IMG/VR virus record: IMGVR_UViG_2609459800_000003
Strand: one strand, 5' to 3'
From: a virus
Taxonomy: Duplodnaviria; Heunggongvirae; Uroviricota; Caudoviricetes
Length of the DNA stretch: 36,024 nucleotides
The notes beneath the pieces are model-generated. The model searched no databases. It saw only the letters and a list, made by a program, of their open reading frames with translations, and was not told the origin of the DNA. Below are positions 8,442-34,518 of the stretch, in pieces; the first letter of the stretch is position 1, and every line of letters begins with the position of its first letter. The position numbers were made by a program, and so were the translations under genes.

Positions 8442-10706
8442 TTATTTTTGACGAATCCTGATTTTTGGTTGTTCACGAACAACAATATCAGTTTCTTTCC
8501 AACCAAGATTATTTATTTCAACCTCGGCTTCGTTGTAGACTGTAGTAGAATTGGCAAGAGATCTTAACGTAATAGCCAATACAGCACGTTGAGGTGAAGA
8601 TAGAGGCTCTTGCTCTGCTCGTCTCTGAACATCAAGTTTAAGTCTCCATTGCTCCCCATTTATACCTTGCGGAAATTGTTTTCTATAAACTTTGACTGGA
8701 GACCATTTGAAGCCATTTTCTATCAGTACCTTTTCAAATAATTCACTCTTTTCTTTTATTTGTGGAATTTTTCCGCTATGTATCCATTTAGCGTTAACTG
8801 GATCATAAGTGTAAGTCCCGAATGACACATCCACATTAGAACGGCAATATTCAGATGGGTAGTCATAATCAAGCGGTGGAGAATAAACGAGTGTCATAAT
8901 AATTTCACCTGTGAATTTTCCATCCTCAGTACGTAATGACTGTGGTATTACAAATGGCGTTCTACTGAATTCAATACCTTCTCGGGTATCTATTTCAAAT
9001 AGAAATGTAATCTCATTTTTATTGCAACCAATAATATCATTTATATGATCGCTTGGACGTCCAAATCCTTGATAATTAAACGCATAATGCTCCGTTTTGG
9101 CTGGTGAGTTTTTTAACGCAGAATGAATTAATAGTGCCTTGATACGTTCAGGCGATGGTGAAATAGAACCATTAACATCTAGTTCATGCCACAGTGATGC
9201 CGCTAAACTTGAGATTAACGGTGCTGATAAACTTGTGCCAATACTTTCGCAAAGAGCATTGTCCTCGCCAATAGCTATGATTCCGGTATGTTCACAGTTT
9301 AATTTACTGTCACAATTACCTCCAAAGTGATTTATCTCTGGTTTGGGTATAAAGGCTGGGCCGGGACCTCTTCTAGAAAAAGATGAAGGTTCAAATCTTT
9401 TGACCACAGAGTCAGACGATTCTAAATGGGCAACTGAGCCAACAGTTAATGAACGAACAGAATCTGCGGGGGCTGATATTCTGTCATGCCCACCTAATTC
9501 TTGAGGAGGCCAGGTTCGTTGAGGATCATAAATGTAGTTGCCGGATGCTACGACGAAAAGACAATCATGCTCATCATGAAGTGCATTTAAAAAATGCCCC
9601 AATTCAGAGAAGCTGTCTTCAGAACATGGGGATTGACAACCTAATGACAGGTTCCATACACGTACTTCTGGATAGGTGGTCACAGCCTCTCGGATAGCTT
9701 TCATTAATTGTGGCAATTTGAGCGTACCATCTTTGGGAAAGGCTGCAACATCAACAATTTCAGCTTGGCATTGAGGAAAACCAGCATAGTTATTCAACCA
9801 TCTTCCATTAATTGCTAAACTTGCAACCATGTTCCCATGAGAATAGTCGTGTTCTCCTTTTACTAAATCTAAACTATCCCAAATCCATGGCCTAAGTATG
9901 TTGTTATTGGGATCGACTCCGCTATCTATAATTCCGAGTAGTGGATAATGTTTATCCTCTTGAGGTAAGGGAAAATCATCTAGGTCTAGAGTTTCAGCAG
10001 GAATATATTGCGATACTGTATGAGTAAGACCAAATGTTGGCATAGGTTCTAATTTTCGTATGCCAATAAAACTTGCCAGTTGGGCGATGTTATCATTCCC
10101 TTTTACTTCATATATACTCAAATCTGAACTGATATCATACTTTTTGGGTTTTTGTATTCCTAGTTCATCTGCAAATTCCATTAATTCTTTGTCGATACTG
10201 CGGTTAGTTGTTCTATCTTTATGGTCAAAGAGTTTCAGAAGAAAACTATCTGATTTATTTTTATCTATAACATCATGGTTAAGACTAAAAGGTTCGATCT
10301 TTTCAATTACAGCAATATGTACTGTCCCATTATGAGAATTAGTGCTATTTTCAATTTTTTTGCGAAGTTGTGCTAACCCTTTTTCAGTAACACTTATAAG
10401 TAATTCTCCAAAATTATCACTGCCTATTACGGGACATGTATTATCACCTAATAGGCTTGATGGGCGATGTGACTTAGCAAGAGCTTTTTCATGAAGAGTA
10501 ACTCTAGCCACCGCCGGTATATTGGGCCATTTTTTAAATGAGCTCTGGAAAAAATTTTTAACGTCATCGACTTCTTGTTTGAGTCTATTTTTTAGACTAG
10601 TTGTTACTGTTCGGATAGGTTGTTTCTTTCCGAAATTATATGTTTTTTCAGTAAAATCTTGAGGTGTCGCCTCAATTATTTTTATTGGTCTTTCTTTGTT
10701 ACTCAT
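8442..10706 (-). CDS. subtilisin-like serine protease (peptidase S8), cytoplasmic; IetS-like
   Basis: 754 aa; full subtilase signature: Asp (GIIDSGVD), His (HGNMVASLAING), oxyanion Asn (VVASGNY), Ser (GTSLSAPLISSLAA); no N-terminal signal peptide; N- and C-terminal extensions of about 250 aa each around the catalytic core; start overlaps the stop of the upstream ATPase. Confidence 0.9.
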   Translation of the reverse strand: MSNKERPIKIIEATPQDFTEKTYNFGKKQPIRTVTTSLKNRLKQEVDDVKNFFQSSFKKWPNIPAVARVTLHEKALAKSHRPSSLLGDNTCPVIGSDNFGELLISVTEKGLAQLRKKIENSTNSHNGTVHIAVIEKIEPFSLNHDVIDKNKSDSFLLKLFDHKDRTTNRSIDKELMEFADELGIQKPKKYDISSDLSIYEVKGNDNIAQLASFIGIRKLEPMPTFGLTHTVSQYIPAETLDLDDFPLPQEDKHYPLLGIIDSGVDPNNNILRPWIWDSLDLVKGEHDYSHGNMVASLAINGRWLNNYAGFPQCQAEIVDVAAFPKDGTLKLPQLMKAIREAVTTYPEVRVWNLSLGCQSPCSEDSFSELGHFLNALHDEHDCLFVVASGNYIYDPQRTWPPQELGGHDRISAPADSVRSLTVGSVAHLESSDSVVKRFEPSSFSRRGPGPAFIPKPEINHFGGNCDSKLNCEHTGIIAIGEDNALCESIGTSLSAPLISSLAASLWHELDVNGSISPSPERIKALLIHSALKNSPAKTEHYAFNYQGFGRPSDHINDIIGCNKNEITFLFEIDTREGIEFSRTPFVIPQSLRTEDGKFTGEIIMTLVYSPPLDYDYPSEYCRSNVDVSFGTYTYDPVNAKWIHSGKIPQIKEKSELFEKVLIENGFKWSPVKVYRKQFPQGINGEQWRLKLDVQRRAEQEPLSSPQRAVLAITLRSLANSTTVYNEAEVEINNLGWKETDIVVREQPKIRIRQK

Positions 10707-12107: not shown

Positions 12108-12126
12108 GGCGAGGCGGGGAAAGCAC
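12108..12126. other. cos cohesive-end site (GGCGAGGCGGGGAAAGCAC)
   Basis: Exact 19-nt sequence I recall as the P2/186 cohesive end, in the expected position upstream of the Q-P packaging genes in a GC-rich stretch. Confidence 0.6.
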
Positions 12127-12268
12127 TGCGCGCTGGCGGTGGTGCTGATTTTATTTTTTCAGCGTCTGAGCGCGTCGTGATGGCGTTTAGATTGTGCGCC
12201 GGGGTGTTGGTGTGTCTGCGGGATGTTTTGTGCGGTGGTGAGCGTGTGAGGGCGTGATGACGGGGTGT

Positions 12269-12290
12269 AAAAAAGCCGCCCGCAGGCGGC
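12269..12290 (-). terminator. rho-independent terminator downstream of Q
   Basis: On the minus strand GCCGCC-TGCG-GGCGGC hairpin followed by TTTTTT, 5 nt after the Q stop. Confidence 0.5.
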
Positions 12291-12295
12291 GATGT

Positions 12296-13330
12296 TCAGC
12301 CGTTGTCAGTGTCCAGTGAGTAGTTTTTAAAGCGGATGACCTCCTGACCGAGCCAGCCGTTTATCTCGCGGATCCTGTCCTGTAACGGGATAAGCTCATT
12401 GCGGACAAAGACCTTTGCCACTTTCTCAATATCACCCAGCGACCCGACGTTCTCCGGCTTGCCGCCCATCAACTGAAAGGGGATGCGGTGCGCGTCCAGC
12501 AGGTCAGCGGCGCTGGCTTTTTTGATATTAAAAAAATCGTCCTTCGTCGCCACTTCACTGAGGGGGATAATTTTAATGCCGTCGGCTTTCCCCTGCGGGG
12601 CATAGAGAAACAGATTTTTAAAGTTATTGCGGCCTTTCGACTTAACCATGTTTTCGCGAAGCATTTCGATATCGTTGCGATCCTGCACGGCATCGGTGAC
12701 GTACATGATGTATCCGGCATGTGCGCCGTTTTCGTAATACTTGCGGCGGAACAGCGTGGCCGACTCATTCAGCCAGGCAGAGTTAAGGGCGCTGAGATAT
12801 TCCGGCAGGCCGTACAGCTCCTGATTAATATCGGGCTCCAGCAGGTGAAACACGGAGCCGGGCGCGAAGGCTGTCGGCTCGTTGAAGGACGGCACCCACC
12901 AGTAAACATCCTCTTCCACGCCACGACGGGTATATTTTGCCGGTGAGGTTTCCAGTCTGATGACCTTACCGGTGGTGCTGTAGCGCTTTTCCAGAAACGC
13001 ATTACCGAACACCAGAAAATCCAGCACAAAACGGCTGAAATCCTGCTGGGAAAGCCACGGGTGCGGGATAAACGTTGAAGCCAGAATATTACGTTTGACG
13101 TAAATCGGTGAGCTGTGATGCACGGCAGCACGCAGGCTTTTTGCCAGACCGGTAAAGCTGACCGGCGGCTCATACCATCTGCCGTTACTGATACATTCGA
13201 CGTAATCCAGAATGTCACGGCGGTCGAGCACCGGCACCGGCTCACCAAAGGTGAATGCCTCCATTTTCGGGGCGCTGGCGGTCATTTTTTTTGCCGCAGG
13301 TTGCGGTGTTTTCCCTTTTTTCTTGCTCAT
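12296..13330 (-). CDS. Q: portal protein Q
   Basis: 344 aa as in P2 Q; start overlaps the P stop (ATGA). Confidence 0.92.
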   Translation of the reverse strand: MSKKKGKTPQPAAKKMTASAPKMEAFTFGEPVPVLDRRDILDYVECISNGRWYEPPVSFTGLAKSLRAAVHHSSPIYVKRNILASTFIPHPWLSQQDFSRFVLDFLVFGNAFLEKRYSTTGKVIRLETSPAKYTRRGVEEDVYWWVPSFNEPTAFAPGSVFHLLEPDINQELYGLPEYLSALNSAWLNESATLFRRKYYENGAHAGYIMYVTDAVQDRNDIEMLRENMVKSKGRNNFKNLFLYAPQGKADGIKIIPLSEVATKDDFFNIKKASAADLLDAHRIPFQLMGGKPENVGSLGDIEKVAKVFVRNELIPLQDRIREINGWLGQEVIRFKNYSLDTDNG

Positions 13331-15102
13331 CAGTAAAACTCCAGAATGGTGGATGTCAGCGGGGTGCTGATACCGGCGGTGAGTGGCTCATTTAACAGGG
13401 CGTGCATGGTCGCCCAGGCGAGGTCGGCGTGGCTGGCTTCCTCGCTGCGGCTGGCCTCATAGGTGGCGCTGCGTCCGCTGCTGGTCATGGTCTTGCGGAT
13501 AGCCATAAACGAGCTGGTGATGTCGGTGGCGCTGACGTCATATTCCAGACAGCCACGGCGGATGACGTCTTTTGCCTTGAGCACCATTGCGGTTTTCATT
13601 TCCGGCGTGTAGCGGATGTCGCGCGCGGCGGGATAGAACGAGCGCACGAGCTGGAACACACCGACACCGAGGCCGGTGGCATCAATCCCGATGTATTCAA
13701 CGTTATATTTTTCGGTGAGTTTGCGGATGGATTCTGCCTGGGTGGCAAAGTCCATGCCTTTCCACTGGTGACGCTCAAGTATTCTGAATTTGCCACCGGC
13801 CACCACCGGCGGTGCCAGCACCACGCATCCGGCACTGTCGCCACGGTGTGACGGGTCGTAACCAATCCATACCGGGCGGGAGCCGAACGGATTCGCGGCA
13901 AACGGCGCATAGTCTTCCCATTCTTCCAGTGTGTCGACCATGCAGCGTTGCAGCTCCTCGAACGGGAACACCGACGCCTTGTCGTCAACAAATTCACACA
14001 TGAACAGGTTTTTAAAATCGTCGGCGCTGTTTTCACGTTTGAGCTGCTCAATGTCGAACAGCGTGCAGCCGCCTTTCAGGGCGTCCTCAATGGTGACAAT
14101 CTGCCGCCACTGGCCGTCCGCACAGAGAAGACCTCCGGCAAGGGCGTTATGACTGACGTCGATTTCCACGCGTTCGGCGGCGCTGGCGCGTCCCCGGTTA
14201 AACAGTTCACCCGACCAGAACGGGTAGGCGTCGTGCGCCAGCGTGGACGGGGTGGAGAAATAGGTCGAACGCAGGTGACTCTGTGAGGCCATACCTGATG
14301 CCACCTTACGCAGTACCTGAAAATTCGGGATCCAGAAAATCTCGTCGACGTACAGGTCGCCGTTATGGCTCTGTGCGGTGTTGGAGTTGGTGCCGAGAAA
14401 AATCAGTTTTGCGCCGTTATTGCCCAGGACAATCGGGTCACCGGTCAGGTCAACGTCAACCAGCCGGGCAAAGGCGATGATGTATTCACGGAACACATAC
14501 GCCTGCGTTTTACTGGCCGACAGAAAAATCTGGTTATGGCCGGTTTTCAGGGCGCGCAGCAGCGCCTCGCGGGAAAAATAAAACGTTGCGCCAATCTGGC
14601 GGGATTTCAGGATATCGCGGATGCGGTGCTCAAGCCCGGCGCGATACCAGTGCAACTGATAGTCGAAAGACTGCTCAAAGAAAATCTGCTCCAGCTTTTC
14701 GATGGCCTCGTCACTGAAAAAATTCTTTTTCGGTTTGCGACGCCCGCCTTTGTTGCGGTTAGCGATGTTCGGATTAAGGTCTGCCTCGTTGCCGGTCTGG
14801 CTGTAGCGGTTTACCCGTGCCAGTCGTTCAATCTGGCGTCCGAGCAGGTCAATTTCCTTGAAGTCACCGCCGGTTTTCTGCGGTTTGATGATGAGCTGGG
14901 TCAGCCGCGCTTCCAGACTCATTTCGACACGGCTGATGGGGGCAACGTTGTCCCAGCCGTCGCGCTGTTTCCAGCTCTGCACCGTCGGGCGTTTCATCTG
15001 CAACATGGCGGAAATCTGCGGCACGGAAAACCCCTGCCAGTACAACAGCGCCGCCTGACGACGCGGGTCGTGTAAAAGAGTGGTGTCTGTGGTGATGGTC
15101 AT
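13330..15102 (-). CDS. P: terminase large subunit P
   Basis: 590 aa from ATG at 15100..15102 (MTITTDTTLLHDPRRQAALLYWQGFS...), the P2 P N-terminus as I recall it; the track ORF extends to a TTG at 15132. Confidence 0.92.
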   Translation of the reverse strand: MTITTDTTLLHDPRRQAALLYWQGFSVPQISAMLQMKRPTVQSWKQRDGWDNVAPISRVEMSLEARLTQLIIKPQKTGGDFKEIDLLGRQIERLARVNRYSQTGNEADLNPNIANRNKGGRRKPKKNFFSDEAIEKLEQIFFEQSFDYQLHWYRAGLEHRIRDILKSRQIGATFYFSREALLRALKTGHNQIFLSASKTQAYVFREYIIAFARLVDVDLTGDPIVLGNNGAKLIFLGTNSNTAQSHNGDLYVDEIFWIPNFQVLRKVASGMASQSHLRSTYFSTPSTLAHDAYPFWSGELFNRGRASAAERVEIDVSHNALAGGLLCADGQWRQIVTIEDALKGGCTLFDIEQLKRENSADDFKNLFMCEFVDDKASVFPFEELQRCMVDTLEEWEDYAPFAANPFGSRPVWIGYDPSHRGDSAGCVVLAPPVVAGGKFRILERHQWKGMDFATQAESIRKLTEKYNVEYIGIDATGLGVGVFQLVRSFYPAARDIRYTPEMKTAMVLKAKDVIRRGCLEYDVSATDITSSFMAIRKTMTSSGRSATYEASRSEEASHADLAWATMHALLNEPLTAGISTPLTSTILEFY

Positions 15103-15275
15103 GAATACCTCGCCGTGATGAATACACGGCAAGGCTACTGAGTCGCGCCCTGCGATTCGCTAAGGTGCTGTTGTGTCAGTGATAAGCCATCCGGGACTGA
15201 TGGCGGAGGATGCGCATCGTCGGGAAACTGATGCCGACATGTGACTCCTCTAATCACTATTCAGGACTCCTGACA
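15103..15275. promoter_or_regulatory. divergent late promoter region (PP / PO by P2 analogy)
   Basis: Intergenic region between the divergent P and O starts; in P2 this holds the Ogr-dependent PP and PO promoters. I could not pinpoint a clean TGT-N12-ACA dyad by eye. Confidence 0.35.
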
Positions 15276-16130
15276 ATGGCAAAAAAAGTCTCAAAATTCT
15301 TTCGTATCGGCGTTGAGGGTGACACCTGTGACGGGCGTGTCATCAGTGCGCAGGATATTCAGGAAATGGCCGAAACCTTTGACCCGCGTGTCTACGGTTG
15401 CCGCATTAACCTGGAACATCTGCGCGGCATCCTGCCTGACGGTATTTTTAAACGTTATGGCGATGTGGTCGAACTGAAGGCCGAAAAGATTGATGACGAT
15501 TCGGCGCTGAAAGGCAAATGGGCGCTGTTTGCGAAAATCACCCCGACCGATGACCTTATCGCGATGAACAAGGCCGCGCAGAAGGTCTATACCTCAATGG
15601 AAATTCAGCCGAACTTTGCCAATACCGGCAAATGTTATCTGGTGGGTCTGGCCGTCACCGATGACCCGGCAAGCCTCGGCACGGAATACCTGGAATTCTG
15701 CCGCACGGCAAAACACAACCCCCTGAACCGCTTCAAATTAAGCCCTGAAAACCTGATTTCAGTGGCAACGCCTGTTGAGCTGGAATTTGAAGACCTGCCT
15801 GAAACCGTGTTCACCGCCCTGACCGAAAAGGTGAAATCCATTTTTGGCCGCAAACAGGCCAGCGATGACGCCCGTCTGAATGACGTGCATGAAGCGGTGA
15901 CCGCTGTCGCTGAACATGTGCAGGAAAAACTGAGCGCCACTGAGCAGCGCCTCGCTGAGATGGAAACTGCCTTTTCCGCTCTTAAGCAGGAGGTGACTGA
16001 CAGGGCGGATGAAACCAGCCAGGCATTCACCCGCCTGAAAAACAGTCTCGACAGCACCGAAAGTCTGACCCAGCAGCGCCGCAGCAAGGCCACCGGCGGT
16101 GGCGGTGACGCCCTGATGACGAACTGCTGA
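15276..16130 (+). CDS. O: capsid scaffolding protein O
   Basis: 284 aa from ATG 15276 (MAKKVSKFFRIGVEGD...), the P2 O size and N-terminus as I recall them; an upstream in-frame ATG at 15210 abuts a GGAGG with no spacer and is less likely. Confidence 0.9.
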   Translation: MAKKVSKFFRIGVEGDTCDGRVISAQDIQEMAETFDPRVYGCRINLEHLRGILPDGIFKRYGDVVELKAEKIDDDSALKGKWALFAKITPTDDLIAMNKAAQKVYTSMEIQPNFANTGKCYLVGLAVTDDPASLGTEYLEFCRTAKHNPLNRFKLSPENLISVATPVELEFEDLPETVFTALTEKVKSIFGRKQASDDARLNDVHEAVTAVAEHVQEKLSATEQRLAEMETAFSALKQEVTDRADETSQAFTRLKNSLDSTESLTQQRRSKATGGGGDALMTNC

Positions 16131-20455: not shown

Positions 20456-20600
20456 CCCGGAGACGAACGGCGATTTAAGTGCCGATATCCGGCAGCTTGA
20501 GAACGCGCTGGCACGCTGTGCCAGCCAGGTAAAAATGATTAAACACTGTCAGGACGAAAACGATGCTCAAACCCGACAGCCTGCGCAGGGCGCTGACTGA
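20310..20600 (+). CDS. lysC: o-spanin LysC (Rz1-like lipoprotein), starts inside lysB in the +1 frame
   Basis: 96 aa from ATG 20310 (MKTKIFAAGTALTCLMLCAGCTSV...) with lipobox LCAGC and proline-rich mature part; GAGG upstream; extends past lysB into the start of R. Confidence 0.75.
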   Translation: MKTKIFAAGTALTCLMLCAGCTSVRPAPTPVIVANACPKVSLCPMPGSDPETNGDLSADIRQLENALARCASQVKMIKHCQDENDAQTRQPAQGAD

Positions 20601-21030
20601 TGCCGTCACGGTGCTGAAAACCAGTCCAGAGATGCTTCGGATATTCGTGGATAACGGGAGTATTGCCTCCACGCTGGCGACGTCGCTGTCGTTCGAAAAG
20701 CGTTACACGCTCAATGTGATTGTGACCGACTTTACCGGTGATTTTGACCTGCTCATCGTGCCGGTGCTGGCGTGGCTGCGGGAAAATCAGCCCGACATCA
20801 TGACCACCGACGAAGGTCAGAAAAAAGGTTTCACGTTTTATGCAGACATCAACAATGACAGCAGCTTTGATATCAGCATCAGCCTGATGCTGACCGAGCG
20901 AACGCTGGTCAGTGAGGTGGACGGCGTACTGCATGTGAAGAATATCCCGGAACCTCCGCCGCCGGAGCCGGTCACCCGCCCGGTGGAGCTTTATATCAAT
21001 GGCGAACTGGTGAGCAAGTGGGATGAATGA
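20563..21030 (+). CDS. R: tail completion protein R
   Basis: 155 aa as in P2 R. Confidence 0.9.
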   Translation: MLKPDSLRRALTDAVTVLKTSPEMLRIFVDNGSIASTLATSLSFEKRYTLNVIVTDFTGDFDLLIVPVLAWLRENQPDIMTTDEGQKKGFTFYADINNDSSFDISISLMLTERTLVSEVDGVLHVKNIPEPPPPEPVTRPVELYINGELVSKWDE

Positions 21031-21475
21031 GTTTAAGCGTTTTGAAGACCGGCTGACCGGACTTATTGAATCGCTGTCACCGTCAGGGCGTCGGCGACTG
21101 AGCGCCGAACTGGCGAAACGTCTGCGGCAGAGTCAGCAGCGCCGGGTGATGGCACAGAAAGCCCCGGACGGCACACCCTACGCACCACGCCAGCAGCAGA
21201 GCGCCAGAAAAAAGACCGGTCGCGTTAAGCGAAAAATGTTTGCGAAACTTATCACCAGTCGTTTTTTGCATATCCGCGCCAGCCCTGAACAGGCATCAAT
21301 GGAGTTTTACGGCGGGAAGTCACCGAAAATAGCCAGTGTGCATCAGTTCGGTCTGTCGGAAGAAACCCGGAAAGACGGTAAGAAAATTGATTATCCGGCG
21401 CGTCCTCTGCTCGGCTTTACCGGTGAGGATGTGCAGATGATTGAAGAGATTATCCTGGCTCACCTCGACCGTTAG
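21023..21475 (+). CDS. S: tail completion protein S
   Basis: 150 aa as in P2 S; start overlaps the R stop. Confidence 0.9.
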   Translation: MNEFKRFEDRLTGLIESLSPSGRRRLSAELAKRLRQSQQRRVMAQKAPDGTPYAPRQQQSARKKTGRVKRKMFAKLITSRFLHIRASPEQASMEFYGGKSPKIASVHQFGLSEETRKDGKKIDYPARPLLGFTGEDVQMIEEIILAHLDR

Positions 21476-21541
21476 TTGTGCCATTCCCGACACCTCATCG
21501 TTACATTGCCGCCGGTATGACCCGGCGGCATCCTTCCCGTT

Positions 21542-22177
21542 ATGAACACTCTCGCAAATATCCAGGAACTCGCGCGCGCACTGCGCAACATGATCCGCAC
21601 CGGCCTTGTCGTCGAAACCAACCTTAAAGCCGGTCGCTGCCGTGTGCAGACCGGCGGCATGTGCACCGACTGGCTTCAGTGGCTGACCTGTCGTGCCGGG
21701 CGTTCGCGCACATGGTGGGCACCTTCCGTGGGGGAGCAGGTGCTGATTCTGGCCGTGGGCGGTGAACTTGACACGGCGTTTGTTCTGCCGGGGATTTATT
21801 CCGGCGATAACCCCGCGCCGTCTGCGTCGGCGGATGCCCTGCATATCCGTTTCCCTGACGGGGCGGTGATTGAGTATGAACCCGAAACCAGTGCACTCAC
21901 GGTAAGCGGAATTAAAACGGCCAGCGTGACGGCTTCTGATTCTGTTACTGCCACGGTGCCGGTGGTCATGGTGAAAGCATCAACCCGCGTCACCCTGGAC
22001 ACACCGGAGGTGGTCTGCACCAACAGGCTGATTACCGGCACGCTGGAAGTGCAGAAGGGCGGGACGATGCGCGGCAACATTGAACACACCGGCGGTGAAC
22101 TCTCATCAAACGGTAAGGTACTGCATACCCATAAACACCCCGGCGACAGCGGCGGCACAACCGGGAGCCCTCTATGA
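21542..22177 (+). CDS. V: baseplate spike/hub protein V
   Basis: 211 aa as in P2 V. Confidence 0.9.
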   Translation: MNTLANIQELARALRNMIRTGLVVETNLKAGRCRVQTGGMCTDWLQWLTCRAGRSRTWWAPSVGEQVLILAVGGELDTAFVLPGIYSGDNPAPSASADALHIRFPDGAVIEYEPETSALTVSGIKTASVTASDSVTATVPVVMVKASTRVTLDTPEVVCTNRLITGTLEVQKGGTMRGNIEHTGGELSSNGKVLHTHKHPGDSGGTTGSPL

Positions 22178-22521
22178 CAGCGCGTTATCTCGGAATGAAT
22201 CGCAGTGATGGCCTGACTGTCACTGACCTTGAGCATATCAGCCAGAGTATCGGCGATATCCTGCGCACACCGGTCGGCTCACGGGTGATGCGTCGTGATT
22301 ACGGCTCGTTGCTGGCGTCAATGATTGACCAGCCGCAGACCCCGGCGCTTGAGTTGCAGATTAAGGTCGCCTGTTACATGGCGGTGCTGAAATGGGAACC
22401 CCGCGTCACCCTGTCATCCGTCACCACTGAGCGCAGTTTTGACGGGCGAATGACAGTTACGTTAACCGGCCAGCACAACGACACCGGCCAGCCACTTTCG
22501 TTAACCATCCCTGTGAGTTGA
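22174..22521 (+). CDS. W: baseplate wedge protein W (gp25-like)
   Basis: 115 aa; ATGA overlap with V. Confidence 0.9.
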   Translation: MTARYLGMNRSDGLTVTDLEHISQSIGDILRTPVGSRVMRRDYGSLLASMIDQPQTPALELQIKVACYMAVLKWEPRVTLSSVTTERSFDGRMTVTLTGQHNDTGQPLSLTIPVS

Positions 22522-23967: not shown

Positions 23968-26178
23968 ATGAGCACAAAATTCAAAACCGTTATCACCACT
24001 GCCGGTGCAGCAAAGCTGGCAGCGGCAACCGCACCGGGAGGGCGGAAGGTCAACATTACCACGATGGCCGTCGGGGATGGCGGTGGTAAATTGCCTGTCC
24101 CGGATGCCGGACAGACCGGGCTTATCCATGAAGTCTGGCGACATGCGCTGAACAAAATCAGCCAGGACAAACGAAACAGTAATTATATTATCGCAGAGCT
24201 GGTTATTCCGCCGGAGGTGGGCGGTTTCTGGATGCGTGAGCTTGGCCTGTACGATGATGCGGGAACATTAATTGCCGTGGCGAACATGGCCGAAAGTTAT
24301 AAGCCAGCTCTTGCCGAAGGCTCAGGGCGTTCGCAGACCTGTCGCATGGTCATCATCGTCAGCAGTATGGCCTCAGTGGCGCTGACCATTGACACCACAA
24401 CGGTGATGGCGACGCAGGATTACGTTGATGACAAAATTGCAGAGCATGAACAGTCACGACGTCACCCGGACGCCTCGCTGACCGCAAAAGGTTTTACTCA
24501 GTTAAGCAGTGCGATCAACAGCACGTCTGAAACACTGGCCGCAACGCCGAAAGCGGTAAAGGCCGCGTATGATCTTGCTAACGGGAAATACACTGCGCAG
24601 GATGCCACCACAGCGCGAAAAGGCCTTGTCCAGCTCAGTAGCGCCACCAACAGCACGTCTGAAACGCTCGCCGCAACACCAAAAGCGGTAAAGGCAGCAT
24701 ATGACCTTGCTAACGGGAAATACACTGCACAGGACGCCACCACAGCGCGAAAAGGTCTTGTCCAGCTCAGTAGCGCCACCAACAGCGATTCTGAAACGCT
24801 TGCAGCAACGCCAAAGGCGGTTAAGACAGCGTATGACCTTGCTAACGGGAAATACACTGCGCAGGATGCCACCACGGCGCGAAAAGGCCTTGTCCAGCTC
24901 AGTAGCGCCACCAACAGTGATTCTGAAACGCTGGCCGCAACACCAAAAGCAGTGAAGTCTGCCTATGACAATGCTGAAAAACGTCTTCAGAAAGATCAGA
25001 ACGGTGCGGATATTCCGGGAAAGGATACCTTCACGAAAAATATCGGTGCCTGTCGTGCTTATAGCGGCGCTTTGAGCACTGAAGCCGGAAACTGGACAAC
25101 CGCTCAGTTTATTGACTGGCTAGAGTCTCAGGGAGCCTTTAATCATCCCTACTGGATGTGCAAGTGTTCCTGGTCATACGGTAATAACAAAATTATTACC
25201 GATACTGACTGTGGGACTATTCATCTTGCAGGTTGCGTGATTGAGGTTATGGGCGTTAAAGCTGCAATGACCATTCGTGTGACCACTCCGAGTACATCAA
25301 GTGGTGGTGGTACCACCAGTGCGCAATTCACGTATATCAATCACGGAGCTGATTATGCGCCGGGCTGGCGACGCGACTACAATACGAAAAATAAGCAACC
25401 GGCTTTTGCATTAGGGAAAACAGGAAATACGGTTGCAAATAATAAAGCGGTAGGATGGAACTGGGACAGTGGTGCTTATTGTGCACAGGATGGCGGAGCA
25501 TCAAAAATGGTGTTGCATTTTTACACGGGTGAGGGAAGTTGTCCGGCAATGCAGTTTCTTGTGGATTATAAAAACAGGGGGATTTTTTACAGGTCGGCAC
25601 GTGATGGGTATGGATTTGAGGCTGACTGGTCAGAGTTTTATACCACATCACGAAAGCCAACACCTGCGGATATTCTTGCTCTGGCATTATCAGGCGGAAG
25701 CATGTCAGGCAGCATAAAATTTATCAATGATGCCTTCCTGATTTGGGAAAGAAACACTGACTGGGCGAAAATTGGATTTAAAAATGATTCAGATGCTGAT
25801 TCTGACTCATACATGTGGTTTGAAACTGGTGATAATGGCAATGAATATTTTAAATGGCGCATCAGGTCTGGCAGCACAACAAAAGATCTGATGACGCTTA
25901 AGTCTGATGCACTACGGGTTACCGGGCAGGTGATACCATCAAATTTCAGCAATTTTGACTCCCGCTATGTCCGGGATATCCGACTTGGTGGTGCCGCCAC
26001 ATACAAACCTGCGAACAATGGCATGACATGGACACATCAGGCACCGTCCGGGTGTGTATATACCGGCATTATTGTTCAGGATACCGGCTCAAACTCTGCC
26101 GATAACATTGGTGGCGTATATTACAGACCGGTTCAGAAATACATTAACGGGACATGGTACAACGTGGCGCAGGTATAA
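23968..26178 (+). CDS. H: tail fiber protein H, with internal tandem repeats and an AT-richer C-terminal receptor-binding region
   Basis: 736 aa (P2 H is 669 aa as I recall); conserved N-terminal baseplate-attachment region; repeated SETLAATPKAVK-containing units; followed directly by G. Confidence 0.9.
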   Translation: MSTKFKTVITTAGAAKLAAATAPGGRKVNITTMAVGDGGGKLPVPDAGQTGLIHEVWRHALNKISQDKRNSNYIIAELVIPPEVGGFWMRELGLYDDAGTLIAVANMAESYKPALAEGSGRSQTCRMVIIVSSMASVALTIDTTTVMATQDYVDDKIAEHEQSRRHPDASLTAKGFTQLSSAINSTSETLAATPKAVKAAYDLANGKYTAQDATTARKGLVQLSSATNSTSETLAATPKAVKAAYDLANGKYTAQDATTARKGLVQLSSATNSDSETLAATPKAVKTAYDLANGKYTAQDATTARKGLVQLSSATNSDSETLAATPKAVKSAYDNAEKRLQKDQNGADIPGKDTFTKNIGACRAYSGALSTEAGNWTTAQFIDWLESQGAFNHPYWMCKCSWSYGNNKIITDTDCGTIHLAGCVIEVMGVKAAMTIRVTTPSTSSGGGTTSAQFTYINHGADYAPGWRRDYNTKNKQPAFALGKTGNTVANNKAVGWNWDSGAYCAQDGGASKMVLHFYTGEGSCPAMQFLVDYKNRGIFYRSARDGYGFEADWSEFYTTSRKPTPADILALALSGGSMSGSIKFINDAFLIWERNTDWAKIGFKNDSDADSDSYMWFETGDNGNEYFKWRIRSGSTTKDLMTLKSDALRVTGQVIPSNFSNFDSRYVRDIRLGGAATYKPANNGMTWTHQAPSGCVYTGIIVQDTGSNSADNIGGVYYRPVQKYINGTWYNVAQV
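24497..24976. repeat. 132-bp (44-aa) tandem repeat, about 3.6 copies, inside tail fiber gene H
   Basis: Unit starts at about 24499, 24631, 24763 and 24895 (exact 132-bp period), encoding ...AQDATTARKGLVQLSSATNS(T/D)SETLAATPKAVK(A/T/S)AYDLANGKYT...; copies differ by a few substitutions. Confidence 0.9.
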
Positions 26179-26709: not shown

Positions 26710-26890
26710 GTTGTATGAGCTTACATATCTATTGCGTAGAGTAAAGCATAATCTGACAGTCCGCTCTGTGCCAGAAGCGGACGTAGCGGCAGCATACATA
26801 ACCTTATGATTTCTTAAAATTTTCCGCTTGGTTTCTGATTGACTAATGAAAATTAATTGAAATTATAAAGCATTCGCAGTAACTTGTGCG

Positions 26891-27136
26891 GTGCCGATAA
26901 TTTCATTCTACCCAATATCATTTATGATTGTAGATAAGAGTAGTGAAAAATATAACAACGGATATAGTGTTGCAATACCACTTGGAGCCGTGAAAATGGA
27001 ACTGGCCGATGATGTACTAAAAATAAACCTTTCATCATGGAATGATATTAAAACAGGATTTCCTTACACAGGGATTAATGAGTATGAGTTACTCATATTA
27101 GATGAGAATCTTTCATTTATAACTTATAAAAAATAA
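26891..27136 (+). CDS. hypothetical small protein at the Z/fun locus (start uncertain)
   Basis: The track start at 26891 is GTG; in-frame ATGs at 26924 and 26996, the latter preceded by GGAG (a 46-aa product). AT-rich; no motif recognised. Confidence 0.35.
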   Translation: MPIISFYPISFMIVDKSSEKYNNGYSVAIPLGAVKMELADDVLKINLSSWNDIKTGFPYTGINEYELLILDENLSFITYKK

Positions 27137-27191
27137 CAATTAACAATACTTCACTTATGTGTGAGTGGTTTTAAAGAGTAAATAATTCATA

Positions 27192-27494
27192 ATGGAAAAA
27201 AGTATGACAATTGAAACCATAAAAATACTAGCGGCAATTAGTAGCATCATTGGTTCTATGATTCTTGCCTATCGAGTTACAGGGATTCTTGCAGCACTTT
27301 CTCTTGCAATAAATTGCCATGAAGAAAACATTAAACAATTAATGCCAACCAATAAGGGGGATGTTTATTATCTCGCAAATGCAACTACGCACGTTAAAAA
27401 TGCGCAAAAGAAACCGCTTCTAATCACGGGGTTTATCTTTCTAATTGCATCTGGTTTTTTGCAGTTTACAGCGTTGATAATGGCAAATATTTAA
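27192..27494 (+). CDS. small membrane protein with two predicted TM helices, Z/fun locus cargo
   Basis: 100 aa; hydrophobic segments around residues 10-30 and 75-98; AT-rich; weak Shine-Dalgarno; followed by a terminator at 27664..27690. Confidence 0.5.
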   Translation: MEKSMTIETIKILAAISSIIGSMILAYRVTGILAALSLAINCHEENIKQLMPTNKGDVYYLANATTHVKNAQKKPLLITGFIFLIASGFLQFTALIMANI

Positions 27495-27663
27495 CAATGG
27501 AATGATACCACCGGTGGTGCGGCTGAAACGATTTGTACGTCATTTAAGCCGCATCGAAATTTAAAGTAACGTCCGCAATTCGCTCCAAGCAGACTGTCAG
27601 ATTTGATAGCGTTTCGGCTATGTAAATAGTCAGTCGGAAAATAAGTGAGTACAAATCAGGACA

Positions 27664-27690
27664 GGCGGGCGAATTGCCCGCCTTTTCTTT
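27664..27690 (+). terminator. rho-independent terminator closing the Z/fun cargo, upstream of the FI late promoter
   Basis: GGCGGGC-gaatt-GCCCGCC hairpin followed by TTTTCTTT. Confidence 0.6.
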
Positions 27691-27786
27691 ATCTGTTGTT
27701 TCATCCACTGACCAGCCAGGTCAAATAGCGTCTCATGCACTGCCCAACAGAAAATAGTTGCACCCATTAACCACGGAGTTAAACGG

Positions 27787-28977
27787 ATGAGTGACTATCA
27801 TCACGGCGTGCAGGTGCTGGAGATTAACGACGGCACCCGCGTCATTTCCACCGTATCCACCGCCATTGTTGGCATGGTCTGCACGGCCAGCGATGCGGAT
27901 GCGGAAATCTTCCCCCTCAATAAACCGGTGCTGATTACCAATGTGCAGAGCGCAATTGCAAAGGCCGGTAAAAAAGGCACGCTGGCGGCGTCGTTACAGG
28001 CCATCGCTGACCAGTCAAAACCGGTCACCGTTGTCGTACGTGTGGAAGACGGCACTGGCGACGACGAGGAAACGAAACTCGCGCAGACCGTTTCCAATAT
28101 CATCGGCACTACCGACGAAAACGGTCAGTACACCGGACTGAAAGCCCTGCTGGCGGCGGAGTCGGTAACCGGTGTTAAACCGCGTATTCTCGGTGTGCCG
28201 GGGCTGGATACCAAAGAGGTGGCTGTTGCACTGGCATCAGTCTGTCAGAAGCTGCGCGCTTTCGGGTATATCAGCGCATGGGGCTGTAAAACCATTTCCG
28301 AGGTGAAAGCTTACCGCCAGAATTTCAGCCAGCGTGAGCTGATGGTCATCTGGCCGGATTTCCTCGCATGGGATACGGTCGCCAGTACCACCGCCACCGC
28401 GTATGCCACCGCCCGTGCGCTGGGTCTGCGCGCTAAAATCGACCAGGAGCAGGGCTGGCATAAAACGCTGTCCAACGTCGGGGTGAACGGTGTTACCGGC
28501 ATCAGCGCATCTGTATTCTGGGATTTGCAGGAGTCCGGTACTGATGCTGACCTGCTTAACGAGTCAGGTGTCACTACGCTGATTCGCCGCGACGGTTTCC
28601 GCTTCTGGGGTAACCGTACCTGCTCTGATGACCCGCTGTTCCTCTTTGAAAACTACACCCGCACCGCGCAGGTGTTGGCCGACACGATGGCTGAGGCGCA
28701 CATGTGGGCGGTGGATAAGCCCATCACCGCAACGCTGATTCGCGACATCGTTGACGGCATCAATGCCAAATTCCGTGAGCTGAAAACAAACGGCTATATC
28801 GTGGATGCGACCTGCTGGTTCAGCGAAGAATCCAACGATGCGGAAACCCTCAAGGCCGGAAAACTGTATATCGACTACGACTATACACCGGTGCCTCCTC
28901 TCGAAAACCTGACCCTGCGCCAGCGTATTACCGATAAATACCTGGCAAATCTGGTCACCTCGGTTAACAGCAATTAA
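27787..28977 (+). CDS. FI: tail sheath protein FI
   Basis: 396 aa as in P2 FI; GGAG Shine-Dalgarno. Confidence 0.93.
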   Translation: MSDYHHGVQVLEINDGTRVISTVSTAIVGMVCTASDADAEIFPLNKPVLITNVQSAIAKAGKKGTLAASLQAIADQSKPVTVVVRVEDGTGDDEETKLAQTVSNIIGTTDENGQYTGLKALLAAESVTGVKPRILGVPGLDTKEVAVALASVCQKLRAFGYISAWGCKTISEVKAYRQNFSQRELMVIWPDFLAWDTVASTTATAYATARALGLRAKIDQEQGWHKTLSNVGVNGVTGISASVFWDLQESGTDADLLNESGVTTLIRRDGFRFWGNRTCSDDPLFLFENYTRTAQVLADTMAEAHMWAVDKPITATLIRDIVDGINAKFRELKTNGYIVDATCWFSEESNDAETLKAGKLYIDYDYTPVPPLENLTLRQRITDKYLANLVTSVNSN

Positions 28978-32926: not shown

Positions 32927-34089
32927 TGCTGGATACGCTGACATTTGATGCAGGCAGTACGCTGACGCCGGATTACATGCTGATGCTCGACAGCAGGGAT
33001 ATTACCGGCAATATCAGCGACCGTCTGATGAGCATGACCCTGACGGATAACCGGGGCTTTGAGGCTGACCAGCTTGATATTGAACTGAACGATGCCGACG
33101 GGCAGGTCGGGCTGCCGGTTCGTGGCGCTGTCCTGACGGTGTATATCGGCTGGAAAGGTTTTGCCCTGGTATGCAAAGGGAAATTTACCGTTGATGAGGT
33201 TGAACACCGGGGCGCGCCGGATGTGGTCACCATCCGTGCCCGGAGTGCAGATTTTCGCGGGACGCTCAATTCCCGCCGGGAAGGCTCCTGGCATGACACC
33301 ACGCTCGGTGCGATTGTTGAGGCGATAGCCACCCGTAACAGGCTGGAAGCCAGTGTTGCTCCGTCACTGGCCGGAATTAAAATCCCGCACATCGACCAGT
33401 CGCAGGAGTCTGATGCGAAATTCCTGACCCGTCTTGCTGAACGCAACGGCGGTGAGGTGTCGGTAAAAATGGGAAAACTGCTGTTTCTCAAAGCGGGGCA
33501 GGGGGTGACTGCCAGCGGTAAAAAAATCCCGCAGATTACCATCACCCGCAGCGACGGTGACCGTCATCATTTTGCGATTGCTGATCGTGGAGCCTATACC
33601 GGCGTAACGGCAAAGTGGTTACACACCAAAGACCCGAAACCACAAAAGCAGAAGGTAAAACTGAAACGCAAAAAGAAAGAAAAACACCTGCGCGCACTGG
33701 AGCACCCGAAAGCAAAACCGGTCACGCAGAAGAAAGCGCCAAAAGTACCGGAAGCGCGCGAAGGTGAATACATGGCCGGTGAGGCTGACAACGTTTTTGC
33801 CCTGACTACGGTATATGCCACGAAAGCGCAGGCCATGCGCGCCGCTCAGGCGAAGTGGGATAAACTGCAACGGGGTGTGGCGGAGTTCTCCATCAGCCTG
33901 GCTACCGGTCGGGCAGATATTTACACGGAAACACCGGTTAAAGTGTCAGGCTTTAAGCGCGTCATAGACGAGCAGGACTGGACAATCACTAAGGTGATAC
34001 ATTTTCTGAATAATAGCGGCTTCACGACGTCCTTGGAGCTTGAGGTCAGGCTTTCTGATGTGGAGTACGAAACAGAAGATGATGAGTGA
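32926..34089 (+). CDS. D: late gene D tail/baseplate hub protein
   Basis: 387 aa as in P2 D; TAATG overlap with U. Confidence 0.92.
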   Translation: MLDTLTFDAGSTLTPDYMLMLDSRDITGNISDRLMSMTLTDNRGFEADQLDIELNDADGQVGLPVRGAVLTVYIGWKGFALVCKGKFTVDEVEHRGAPDVVTIRARSADFRGTLNSRREGSWHDTTLGAIVEAIATRNRLEASVAPSLAGIKIPHIDQSQESDAKFLTRLAERNGGEVSVKMGKLLFLKAGQGVTASGKKIPQITITRSDGDRHHFAIADRGAYTGVTAKWLHTKDPKPQKQKVKLKRKKKEKHLRALEHPKAKPVTQKKAPKVPEAREGEYMAGEADNVFALTTVYATKAQAMRAAQAKWDKLQRGVAEFSISLATGRADIYTETPVKVSGFKRVIDEQDWTITKVIHFLNNSGFTTSLELEVRLSDVEYETEDDE

Positions 34090-34170
34090 TGTTTTTATTT
34101 TATCTATTTGTTTTATAAGGATAAATTAACTAAAATGGCACCATCAACAAAACCGGAAGAGGTGCTCGCG

Positions 34171-34389
34171 ATGTTTCATTGTCCTTTATGCCAGCATGCC
34201 GCACATGCGCGTACAAGCCGCTATATCACTGACACGACAAAAGAGCGTTATCACCAGTGTCAGAACGTGAATTGCAGCGCCACGTTCATCACTTATGAGT
34301 CGGTACAGCGATACATCGTAAAGCCGGGAGAAGTCCACGCCGTAAGGCCGCACCCGTTACCGTCAGGGCAGCAAATTATGTGGATGTAA
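34171..34389 (+). CDS. ogr: late gene activator Ogr (zinc-finger transcription factor)
   Basis: 72 aa from ATG 34171 (MFHCPLCQHAAHARTSRYITDTTKERYHQCQNVNCSATF...), with the C2-C2 zinc-binding cysteines; the track ORF from 34108 is an upstream extension. Confidence 0.92.
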   Translation: MFHCPLCQHAAHARTSRYITDTTKERYHQCQNVNCSATFITYESVQRYIVKPGEVHAVRPHPLPSGQQIMWM

Positions 34390-34402
34390 TTACAAACAGA
34401 AA

Positions 34403-34427
34403 GCCCCTCAGTCGAGGGGCTTTTTTT
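34403..34427 (+). terminator. rho-independent terminator after ogr
   Basis: GCCCCTC-agtc-GAGGGGC hairpin followed by TTTTTTT. Confidence 0.7.
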
Positions 34428-34491
34428 GTCGATGTGGTCAATGTGTGGACGTGACCAGAAATAAATCCTTTTATTTCATTGAATTACGTGT

Positions 34492-34518
34492 AAAAAATAA
34501 GCCCGTGTAAGGGAGATT
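34492..34518. repeat. attR core (27-bp direct repeat), also the 3' terminator end of cyaR
   Basis: Exact copy of 478..504. Confidence 0.85.

Follow-up and report, generated by a model that had tools for sequence, protein, structure and literature searches.

The closest described system for the locus analyzed here is the late gene region of bacteriophage P2. The four late promoters of P2 have a common activator site, TGT-N12-ACA (PMC3931495), and in the P2 record (AF063097) the activator sites are centred at approximately -55. In the same record the V operon starts on the A of the V ATG, and P2 is named as a source of leaderless mRNA in a passage of another paper that cites Christie and Calendar 1985 (PMC4633059). 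Downstream of S, P2 has a putative rho-independent terminator of the O operon (AF063097, 9397-9433), followed by orf30 on the opposite strand, the activator site (10239-10266) and the start of V. The gap between S and V is a site of variable cargo (PMC6823313).

Here, we analyzed a stretch of 36,024 nt (hereafter the window, to whose full length all coordinates refer unless P2 or another locus is named), which holds a complete P2-like (Peduovirus) prophage. Matches to P2 were found at the cos/Q end (12108-12509), PP/PO (15059-15359), P_F (27639-27935) and ogr-att (34036-34518), the last of which has approximately 96-96.5% identity to the P2 ogr region. A 45-nt stretch at 478-522 is identical to P2 24356-24400 and starts at the P2 attP core (24356-24382); a second copy of the core lies at about 34492-34518, within the stretch 34474-34518 at which the ogr-att match ends (34518). 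Judging from these identities, 478-522 and 34474-34518 are probably attL and attR, and such a pair of att copies would mean that the window contains the whole prophage (~34 kb), flanked on either side by host DNA. Approximately 65 nt before the att core, in the host flank, a strong hairpin was observed at 381-414 (AGCACGATGCC...GGCATCGTGCT, -20.4 kcal/mol), which may be the terminator of the adjacent host gene. A further strong hairpin on the minus strand (15103-15136, CCTTGCCGTG-tattcat-CACGGCGAGG, -20.1 kcal/mol) coincides with the mapped start of the P-Q transcript in P2; it would be situated at the extreme 5' end of the P-Q mRNA and may serve as a 5' stabilising stem.

The S-V junction and its late promoter

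On the plus strand, gene S (21023-21475, stop codon TAG at 21473-21475) encodes the tail completion protein and is the last gene of the upstream late (O) operon. It was identified from the ORF list and by Pfam (PF05069 Phage_tail_S, E=6e-44), and the phages that match the whole spacer, including Wphi (96.5% identity), carry the annotation S or tail completion protein for this gene. Gene V (21542-22177, plus strand), for the baseplate spike, is the first of the V-W-J-I-H-G late operon and was assigned by PF04717 (Phage_base_V), PF18715 (Phage_spike) and the annotation of relatives. The two genes are separated by 66 nt, in which a hairpin starts 32 nt past the S stop and ends 11 nt before the V start. 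Yersinia phage HQ103, P24C9, Wphi, L-413C and many others match the S-V stretch at 95-99.6% identity, and a 66-nt spacer is common to all of them.

A putative Ogr-type activator site, TTGTGCCA...ACA (TGT-N10-ACA, 21476-21492, plus strand), begins only 1 nt past the S stop codon. Its TTGT is at -66 from the V ATG, compared with -65, -66 and -67 in the mapped PO, PV and PF promoters of P2, and TTGT was nearly universal at this position among the first 99 distinct V-upstream regions. The left half of the putative dyad is thus placed as in P2, and the right half, ACA, follows after N10, compared with N11 in P2's own P_V and N12 in the consensus. Further downstream on the same strand, a -35-like hexamer TTGCCG (21506-21511) overlaps the left arm of the hairpin and lies 17 nt upstream of a -10-like hexamer CATCCT (21529-21534), which starts as the right arm ends and is spaced 7 nt from the ATG. 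The corresponding elements are GCATCCT 7 nt before the V ATG in the window and GCAATCT 7 nt before the ATG in the experimentally mapped P_V of P2. GCAT(C/T)CT occurs in V-upstream regions of every spacer class, and 173 of the 211 distinct V-upstream regions have TTG-N19-GCA, among them those of lineages whose spacers are unrelated to that of the window. This pattern indicates a promoter in which TTG serves as the -35 element and GCAT(C/T)CT as the -10 element, with a predicted start at the V ATG, plus or minus one base.

With the geometry common to P2, transcription of the V operon is predicted to start at 21542 on the plus strand, the A of the V ATG. No Shine-Dalgarno or other purine-rich motif was found in GGCATCCTTCCCGTT upstream of the V ATG, nor at this position in relatives, and the V mRNA is predicted to be leaderless. 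The hairpin would then lie inside the core of P_V, from approximately -35 to -12. If V starts at its ATG, the hairpin is outside the V mRNA, and it could therefore act only on RNA that arrives from upstream. The gene of the cognate activator (ogr) is present in the same prophage, and both position and geometry suggest that the promoter belongs to the family of P2 Ogr-dependent late promoters, with a right half-site after N10 and not N12. The original prediction had placed the hairpin between S and V, where P2-type phages carry P_V, and the ORFs and the P2 geometry agree with it. Its location in the P_V region thus stands, but the hairpin sits within the promoter core, with arms that touch the -35 and -10 elements, and not beside the promoter.

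Two other assignments of these bases to promoter elements were considered and rejected. The loop TATGAC could be dismissed as a -10 element, as it occurs in 16 variants (e.g., AACACC), in contrast to the conserved GCATCCT downstream. The arms do not represent a general late-promoter motif either, since TTGCCGC and GCGGCAT are absent from PP, PO and PF of P2.

Comparison with P2 at the same position gave a mixed picture. The P_V of P2 resembles that of the window in its location before V, TTGT at -66, a -10-like element 7 nt before the ATG, the lack of a Shine-Dalgarno sequence and the presence of ogr. It differs in that its -50 to -14 region is AT-rich and contains no palindrome, and in that orf30 and a separate canonical terminator lie between S and P_V. 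The original prediction had proposed a comparison with P2 at this position; P2 lacks the hairpin, and has the AT-rich P_V and a different, canonical terminator after S. The latter is also a strong stem-loop at the same operon end and starts 30 nt after the S stop, compared with 32 nt for the hairpin in the window. However, its sequence is unrelated (AAACATTGAGCG...CGCTCAATGTTT), it is flanked by A and T runs, it is common to the convergent orf30 and it is located outside the promoter. Comparison of the P2 P_V (AF063097, 10239-10308; locus L001 of our comparison set) with the Wphi-type P_V at window positions 21476-21541 revealed no sequence relationship save for TTGT and the -10 element. On this comparison, the P_V region of P2 appears to have been replaced together with the insertion of orf30, which would imply that whole promoter modules are exchanged at the S-V hot spot.

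Stability and conservation of the hairpin

The stem-loop at 21507-21530 (plus strand, TGCCGCCGG-tatgac-CCGGCGGCA; approximately -35 to -12 of P_V) is composed of a left arm (21507-21515, TGCCGCCGG), the loop TATGAC (21516-21521) and a right arm (21522-21530, CCGGCGGCA). The perfect 9-bp stem and 6-nt loop previously described could be reproduced from the sequence, with eight G-C pairs and one T-A pair in the stem. Its RNA folding energy is -19.5 kcal/mol (z = -4.3), and a fold of equal stability was obtained from 0 of 200 shuffles that kept the dinucleotides of the local 41-mer, in line with the strong hairpin of the original prediction. In the 91-nt S-V context it is the centroid structure and the single dominant fold, and it ranks third in stability among the loci covered by approximately 36,000 sliding 34-nt folds of both strands (mean -5.4, sd 3.5). 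The palindrome has a single copy in the whole 36,024-nt window. By our own arithmetic, approximately one 9-bp inverted repeat with a loop of 3-9 nt is expected by chance per 36 kb, so its length alone is unremarkable; its distinguishing traits are G+C content, intergenic position and conservation.

As had been noted before, this is not a classical terminator with a clean U-tract: the tail of the stem, ATCCTTCCCGTT (also given as AUCCUUCCCGUU), contains no such tract (approximately 5 or more of 8) and was negative in the terminator scan. A scan of 20500-22500 for sigma-70 promoters and terminators called neither at the hairpin site, which is uninformative because such silence is expected for an activator-dependent promoter and a hairpin without U residues. 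A search of 21300-21750 against Rfam 15 (E<=10) returned chance-level matches only, the best of those overlapping the hairpin having 12.9 bits (E=9.9), whereas the gathering score is 64.5.

The pattern TTGCCGCCGG-N6-CCGGCGGCAT was found in at least 120 viral contigs; all the matches listed are located 10-11 nt before an ATGAAYA V start, and they contain 16 different loops between perfect arms. For a broader comparison, we used 336 loci with a V homolog, which correspond to 211 distinct upstream 80-mers from many enterobacterial genera, with V identity down to approximately 68%. The hairpin is spread over Escherichia, Klebsiella/Raoultella, Enterobacter, Citrobacter, Pectobacterium and others. 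The original prediction had regarded absence from related phages as an argument against a role; instead, the hairpin is conserved in most other P2-like phages. It travels with V rather than with S. In R18C, for example, S is followed by a co-directional cargo gene of 246 aa, then by TGT-N10-ACA, a variant stem (TGCTGCTGG/CCAGCGGCA) and V, and a Klebsiella prophage has unrelated upstream sequence, an identical stem and a different loop. We found no description of the S-V hairpin in the literature covered, which did not extend to older work on P2, 186, Wphi and L-413C where a prior mention is possible, and a transcriptome paper on a P2-like Salmonella prophage (PMC7067206) contained nothing on the S-V junction.

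Evidence for selected pairing was modest. In a fixed register with 46 sequences, covariation was not above that of shuffles. Among 105 distinct but related sequences, 84.9% of the cells could pair versus 83.4 +/- 0.5 in shuffles (4/500), and two-sided changes were seen in 30 cells versus 17.3 (6/500). The covariation score in these related sequences was matched by 17 of 500 shuffles and is nominally significant. Variants of the stem include TGCCGTCA/TGACGGCA, TGCCGCTA/TAGCGGCA and TGCCGTTAGG/CCTAGCGGCA, and shifted stems such as GCCGTTC/GAACGGC and GCCGCG/CGCGGC were also observed (shifted-stem loci L080, L082 and L463). Since the sequences are related and most of the pairing reflects conserved arms, the covariation is suggestive only. 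The strand asymmetry of wobble pairs was ambiguous: all nine pairs of the small set gave 26 T.G versus 29 C.A/A.C, i.e., no signal, and the outer seven pairs of the larger set gave 80 T.G versus 26, a count that is biased by the filter that fixes CGGCA in the right arm and is given no weight here.

A different explanation of this conservation is that the element is promoter DNA alone, with TTGCCGC as the -35 region and CCCGGCGGCAT as a conserved spacer or an upstream -10 element in one particular variant of P_V, and with complementarity that has no function in RNA. The pairing could then be incidental, or the arms could form a rigid G+C spacer that silences the unactivated promoter, a small cruciform or the site of a dimeric protein. 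Several observations fit this explanation. Sequence conservation extends to both arms: no variation was seen in TTG in either alignment (A1 or A2), nor in CGGCA in A1, which was unfiltered (in A2 the filter used for selection fixes CGGCA). Conservation of the right arm (CCCGGCGGCA) exceeds that of its left-arm partner, and the right arm persists even when the left arm decays, which implies that something besides pairing, probably promoter function, constrains it. Formal covariation is weak, and the element occurs solely in front of V among the matches listed in at least 120 contigs. On the other hand, the mapped and functional P_V of P2, as well as its PO, PP and PF, are without this sequence, and the arms are thus dispensable for Ogr-dependent activation. 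For a typical dimer, half-site centres approximately 18 bp apart would be out of helical phase. An arm of 9 bp is also short for cruciform extrusion. Moreover, promoter DNA alone leaves the shifted stems of L080, L082 and L463 unexplained, and the same applies to the observations on upstream genes and other lineages described below. Considering all of these, we regard it as unlikely, if the most serious of the alternatives.

Operon ends and upstream gene orientation

All other late-operon ends of this prophage have a strong hairpin together with a T-run, namely tQ (12275-12290, minus strand), the one before P_F (27663-27683) and that of ogr (34400-34423). The S-V hairpin is the sole late-operon-end hairpin that lacks a T-run, and also the sole one with no room outside the promoter. 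The P_F junction (27657-27699) is particularly similar in layout: a canonical terminator, AGGCGGGC-gaatt-GCCCGCCT followed by TTTCTTTAT (27663-27692), is found there, and the TTGT of P_F (27696) comes 4 nt after its T-run. In both junctions a strong GC hairpin would close one late operon just before the next activator site or its promoter; at P_F, however, the hairpin has a proper T-run and lies upstream of TTGT, whereas the S-V hairpin is in the core promoter and has no T-run. Upstream of this junction, between gene G and P_F (26800-27640, the position of the fun(Z) cargo in P2), several sigma-70-like promoter matches were observed on both strands, and this region is probably a cargo slot (moron or defence).

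The strength of the fold before V is linked to the orientation of the upstream gene. The median folding energy of the -55 to -7 region was -16.2 kcal/mol when the upstream gene was co-directional (n=142) and -7.9 when it was divergent (n=60), a contrast that is highly significant across the 211 distinct regions if kinship is ignored (Mann-Whitney p=1e-15; Fisher odds ratio 15.6). When only the spacer class of the window was considered, the medians were -17.0 (n=117) and -12.5 (n=21), respectively (p=2e-4, kinship again ignored). The orientations were taken from crude ORF calls and an HMM for S, with the nearest upstream gene scored, and contain residual errors. In the presence of divergent cargo, the left arm has decayed (TTGTAGC, TTGACGC, TTGTTGC) and TTG and GGCGGCAT are kept. 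Exceptions to this rule were observed in both directions. L075 and L055 have the same divergent cargo; the left arm has decayed in L075, and L055 keeps the hairpin. L079 and L052 have no hairpin at approximately -45 to -8 (TTGCGACAA...AACGGCAT), keep TTG-N19-GCAT and have a likely S-like ORF, co-directional, just upstream. Promoter DNA alone would give no reason for complementarity to track the orientation of the upstream gene.

The arrangement of cargo is consistent with the same link. At junctions where S and cargo are convergent, a separate strong hairpin follows S (-32 kcal/mol in P2, -35 in L072, -29 in L055 and -18 in L039). In contrast, co-directional cargo starts 13-25 nt after S with no hairpin between.

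Other lineages have unrelated hairpins in the same slot. PSP3 and 186 contain a different GC hairpin, GGAGCCGCGC-gaattg-GCGCGACTCC, at approximately -50 to -25. In the Kosakonia class (Kosakonia and related; L023, L020, L024 and L025), CGGACA-gcct-TGTCCG followed by TTTTT forms a classical terminator at approximately -52 to -30 (locus ~1449-1471). The activator site of this class is a perfect TGT-N12-ACA, and its right half, ACA, shares bases with the terminator. These hairpins look like independent solutions, and they too, one of them with a T-run, would be left unexplained if the element in the window were promoter DNA only.

Possible roles of the hairpin

The explanation that we favour, with a somewhat better than even chance of being correct, is that the hairpin is an RNA element that ends or stabilises the transcript of the upstream O operon (R-S) and is nested in P_V. 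The same bases would be read in two ways. In DNA, they would form part of a promoter with TTGT at -66, TTGCCG as the -35 element at the start of the left arm, a 17-nt spacer and CATCCT as the -10 element where the right arm ends; transcription would begin at the V ATG. In RNA, the stem would form in O-operon transcripts (...R-S plus any co-directional cargo) and mark their 3' end. Nesting of a terminator in the promoter may be understood from the space available, because the activator site starts 1 nt past the S stop and the whole spacer has just 66 nt. If the upstream transcript ends here, P_V would be shielded from read-through, and V would be expressed from transcripts that begin at its own AUG. 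Among the alternatives raised by the original prediction, a boundary role between the R-S and V-W-J-I-H-G transcripts is the one best supported.

As to the mechanism, the hairpin could be a weak, U-poor intrinsic terminator or pause site, and/or it could block 3' exonucleases once Rho has terminated transcription in the untranslated start of V. It has the stable G+C-rich stem of an intrinsic terminator and is positioned downstream of a co-directional unit, and the U-run is missing. The lack of a U-tract makes efficient intrinsic termination doubtful, and with such a U-poor tail the hairpin is probably a weak intrinsic terminator or a pause site. The -10 element and the start site limit how far the sequence of this tail can vary.

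One alternative, which is a sub-variant of this explanation and differs from it in mechanism, is that Rho terminates read-through transcription in the untranslated 5' part of V and exonucleases then trim the RNA back to the hairpin, which would only stabilise the S-proximal mRNA. In E. coli, Rho-dependent 3' ends are commonly trimmed back to stable stem-loops. Enterobacterial 3' stabilising stem-loops that remain after Rho termination or processing share with the hairpin a stable GC stem, the lack of a U-tract, a location at an operon end and C-rich untranslated RNA that follows. The absence of a U-tract is in keeping with such trimming, and read-through RNA would be untranslated since V has no ribosome-binding site. 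The spacer is C-rich and G-poor, with a skew of +0.47 before the stem and +0.67 after it, which is compatible with Rho loading, and the mean skew was +0.40 and +0.76 (before and after the stem) in hairpin-bearing lineages versus +0.18 and +0.52 in those with divergent cargo. However, the C-rich stretch comprises only approximately 30 + 11 nt, which is below typical Rho loading sites, and the canonical terminator in the same slot of the Kosakonia class suggests that termination at the hairpin itself has been selected. We consider trimming after Rho termination an unlikely account of the hairpin.

A bolder idea, for which we see only a slim chance, is that the same 24 nt have been selected twice, in DNA for their part in an activator-dependent, leaderless promoter (-35 element and spacer) and in RNA for terminating the operon that precedes it. 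Termination at the U-poor hairpin would then be conditional: RNA polymerase and Ogr bound at P_V would act as a roadblock a few nucleotides ahead of a paused polymerase that carries the hairpin in its transcript, and occupancy of the promoter would itself drive termination. If a roadblock of this kind does operate, the end of the O operon would be tied to the activation of the V operon, and V would be translated only from transcripts that start at its AUG.

It had also been suggested that the hairpin might be an attenuator, or that it might affect processing or stability as part of the 5'-UTR of the V-W-J-I-H-G transcript. The hairpin is indeed 11 nt upstream of a V start codon without a Shine-Dalgarno sequence, and a transcription start farther upstream would put it in the leader. 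Nevertheless, 65-66 nt separate the activator half-site from the ATG, just as in P2, and the -10-like element is downstream of the stem. A start upstream of 21507 would move the activator site to approximately -22, which is unfit for this promoter class, and the 31 nt from the S stop to the stem leave no room for a second promoter. Folding of the 91-nt S-V context predicted no alternative (anti-terminator) structure. With the hairpin upstream of the predicted V start and a single dominant fold, this part of the original prediction finds little in its favour, and we consider it very improbable. Even less credible is a dispersed palindrome of the REP type, or a signal for recombination or insertion at the orf30 site, the hot spot for cargo between S and V: the gap is a known variable cargo site (PMC6823313) and BLAST homology to several cargo-carrying phages starts at the 5' edge of the hairpin (window 21505), but cargo sits between the S stop and TTGT and not at the hairpin in R18C and the co-directional-cargo junctions read, the loss of homology at 21505 is simply due to a diverged activator region, and the palindrome is single-copy in the window and always in front of V among the viral-contig matches listed (at least 120).

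If our favoured explanation, that the hairpin ends or stabilises the O-operon transcript, is correct, the S-V junction contains a compact and widely conserved terminator nested in the core of the next promoter, before a classic leaderless gene, and the same bases would be the -35 element and spacer in DNA and a stem in RNA. The anatomy and the comparative pattern, in which a terminator-like hairpin makes use of the -35 element and spacer of the leaderless and activator-dependent promoter that follows, are well supported, and the mechanism is a proposal. Nothing known on late gene control of P2 is overturned, and the arrangement is a tidy, rather ordinary one for phage genes. The junction could nevertheless serve as a concrete and easily mutated model for the insulation of late operons in short spacers, for transcript ends without a U-tract in enterobacteria and for leaderless expression guarded from read-through. 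It would also assist the annotation of P2-like S-V junctions, in which a hairpin in the promoter would indicate co-transcription of the O operon with the gene or cargo upstream, and a missing or decayed hairpin would indicate divergent cargo with its own terminator.
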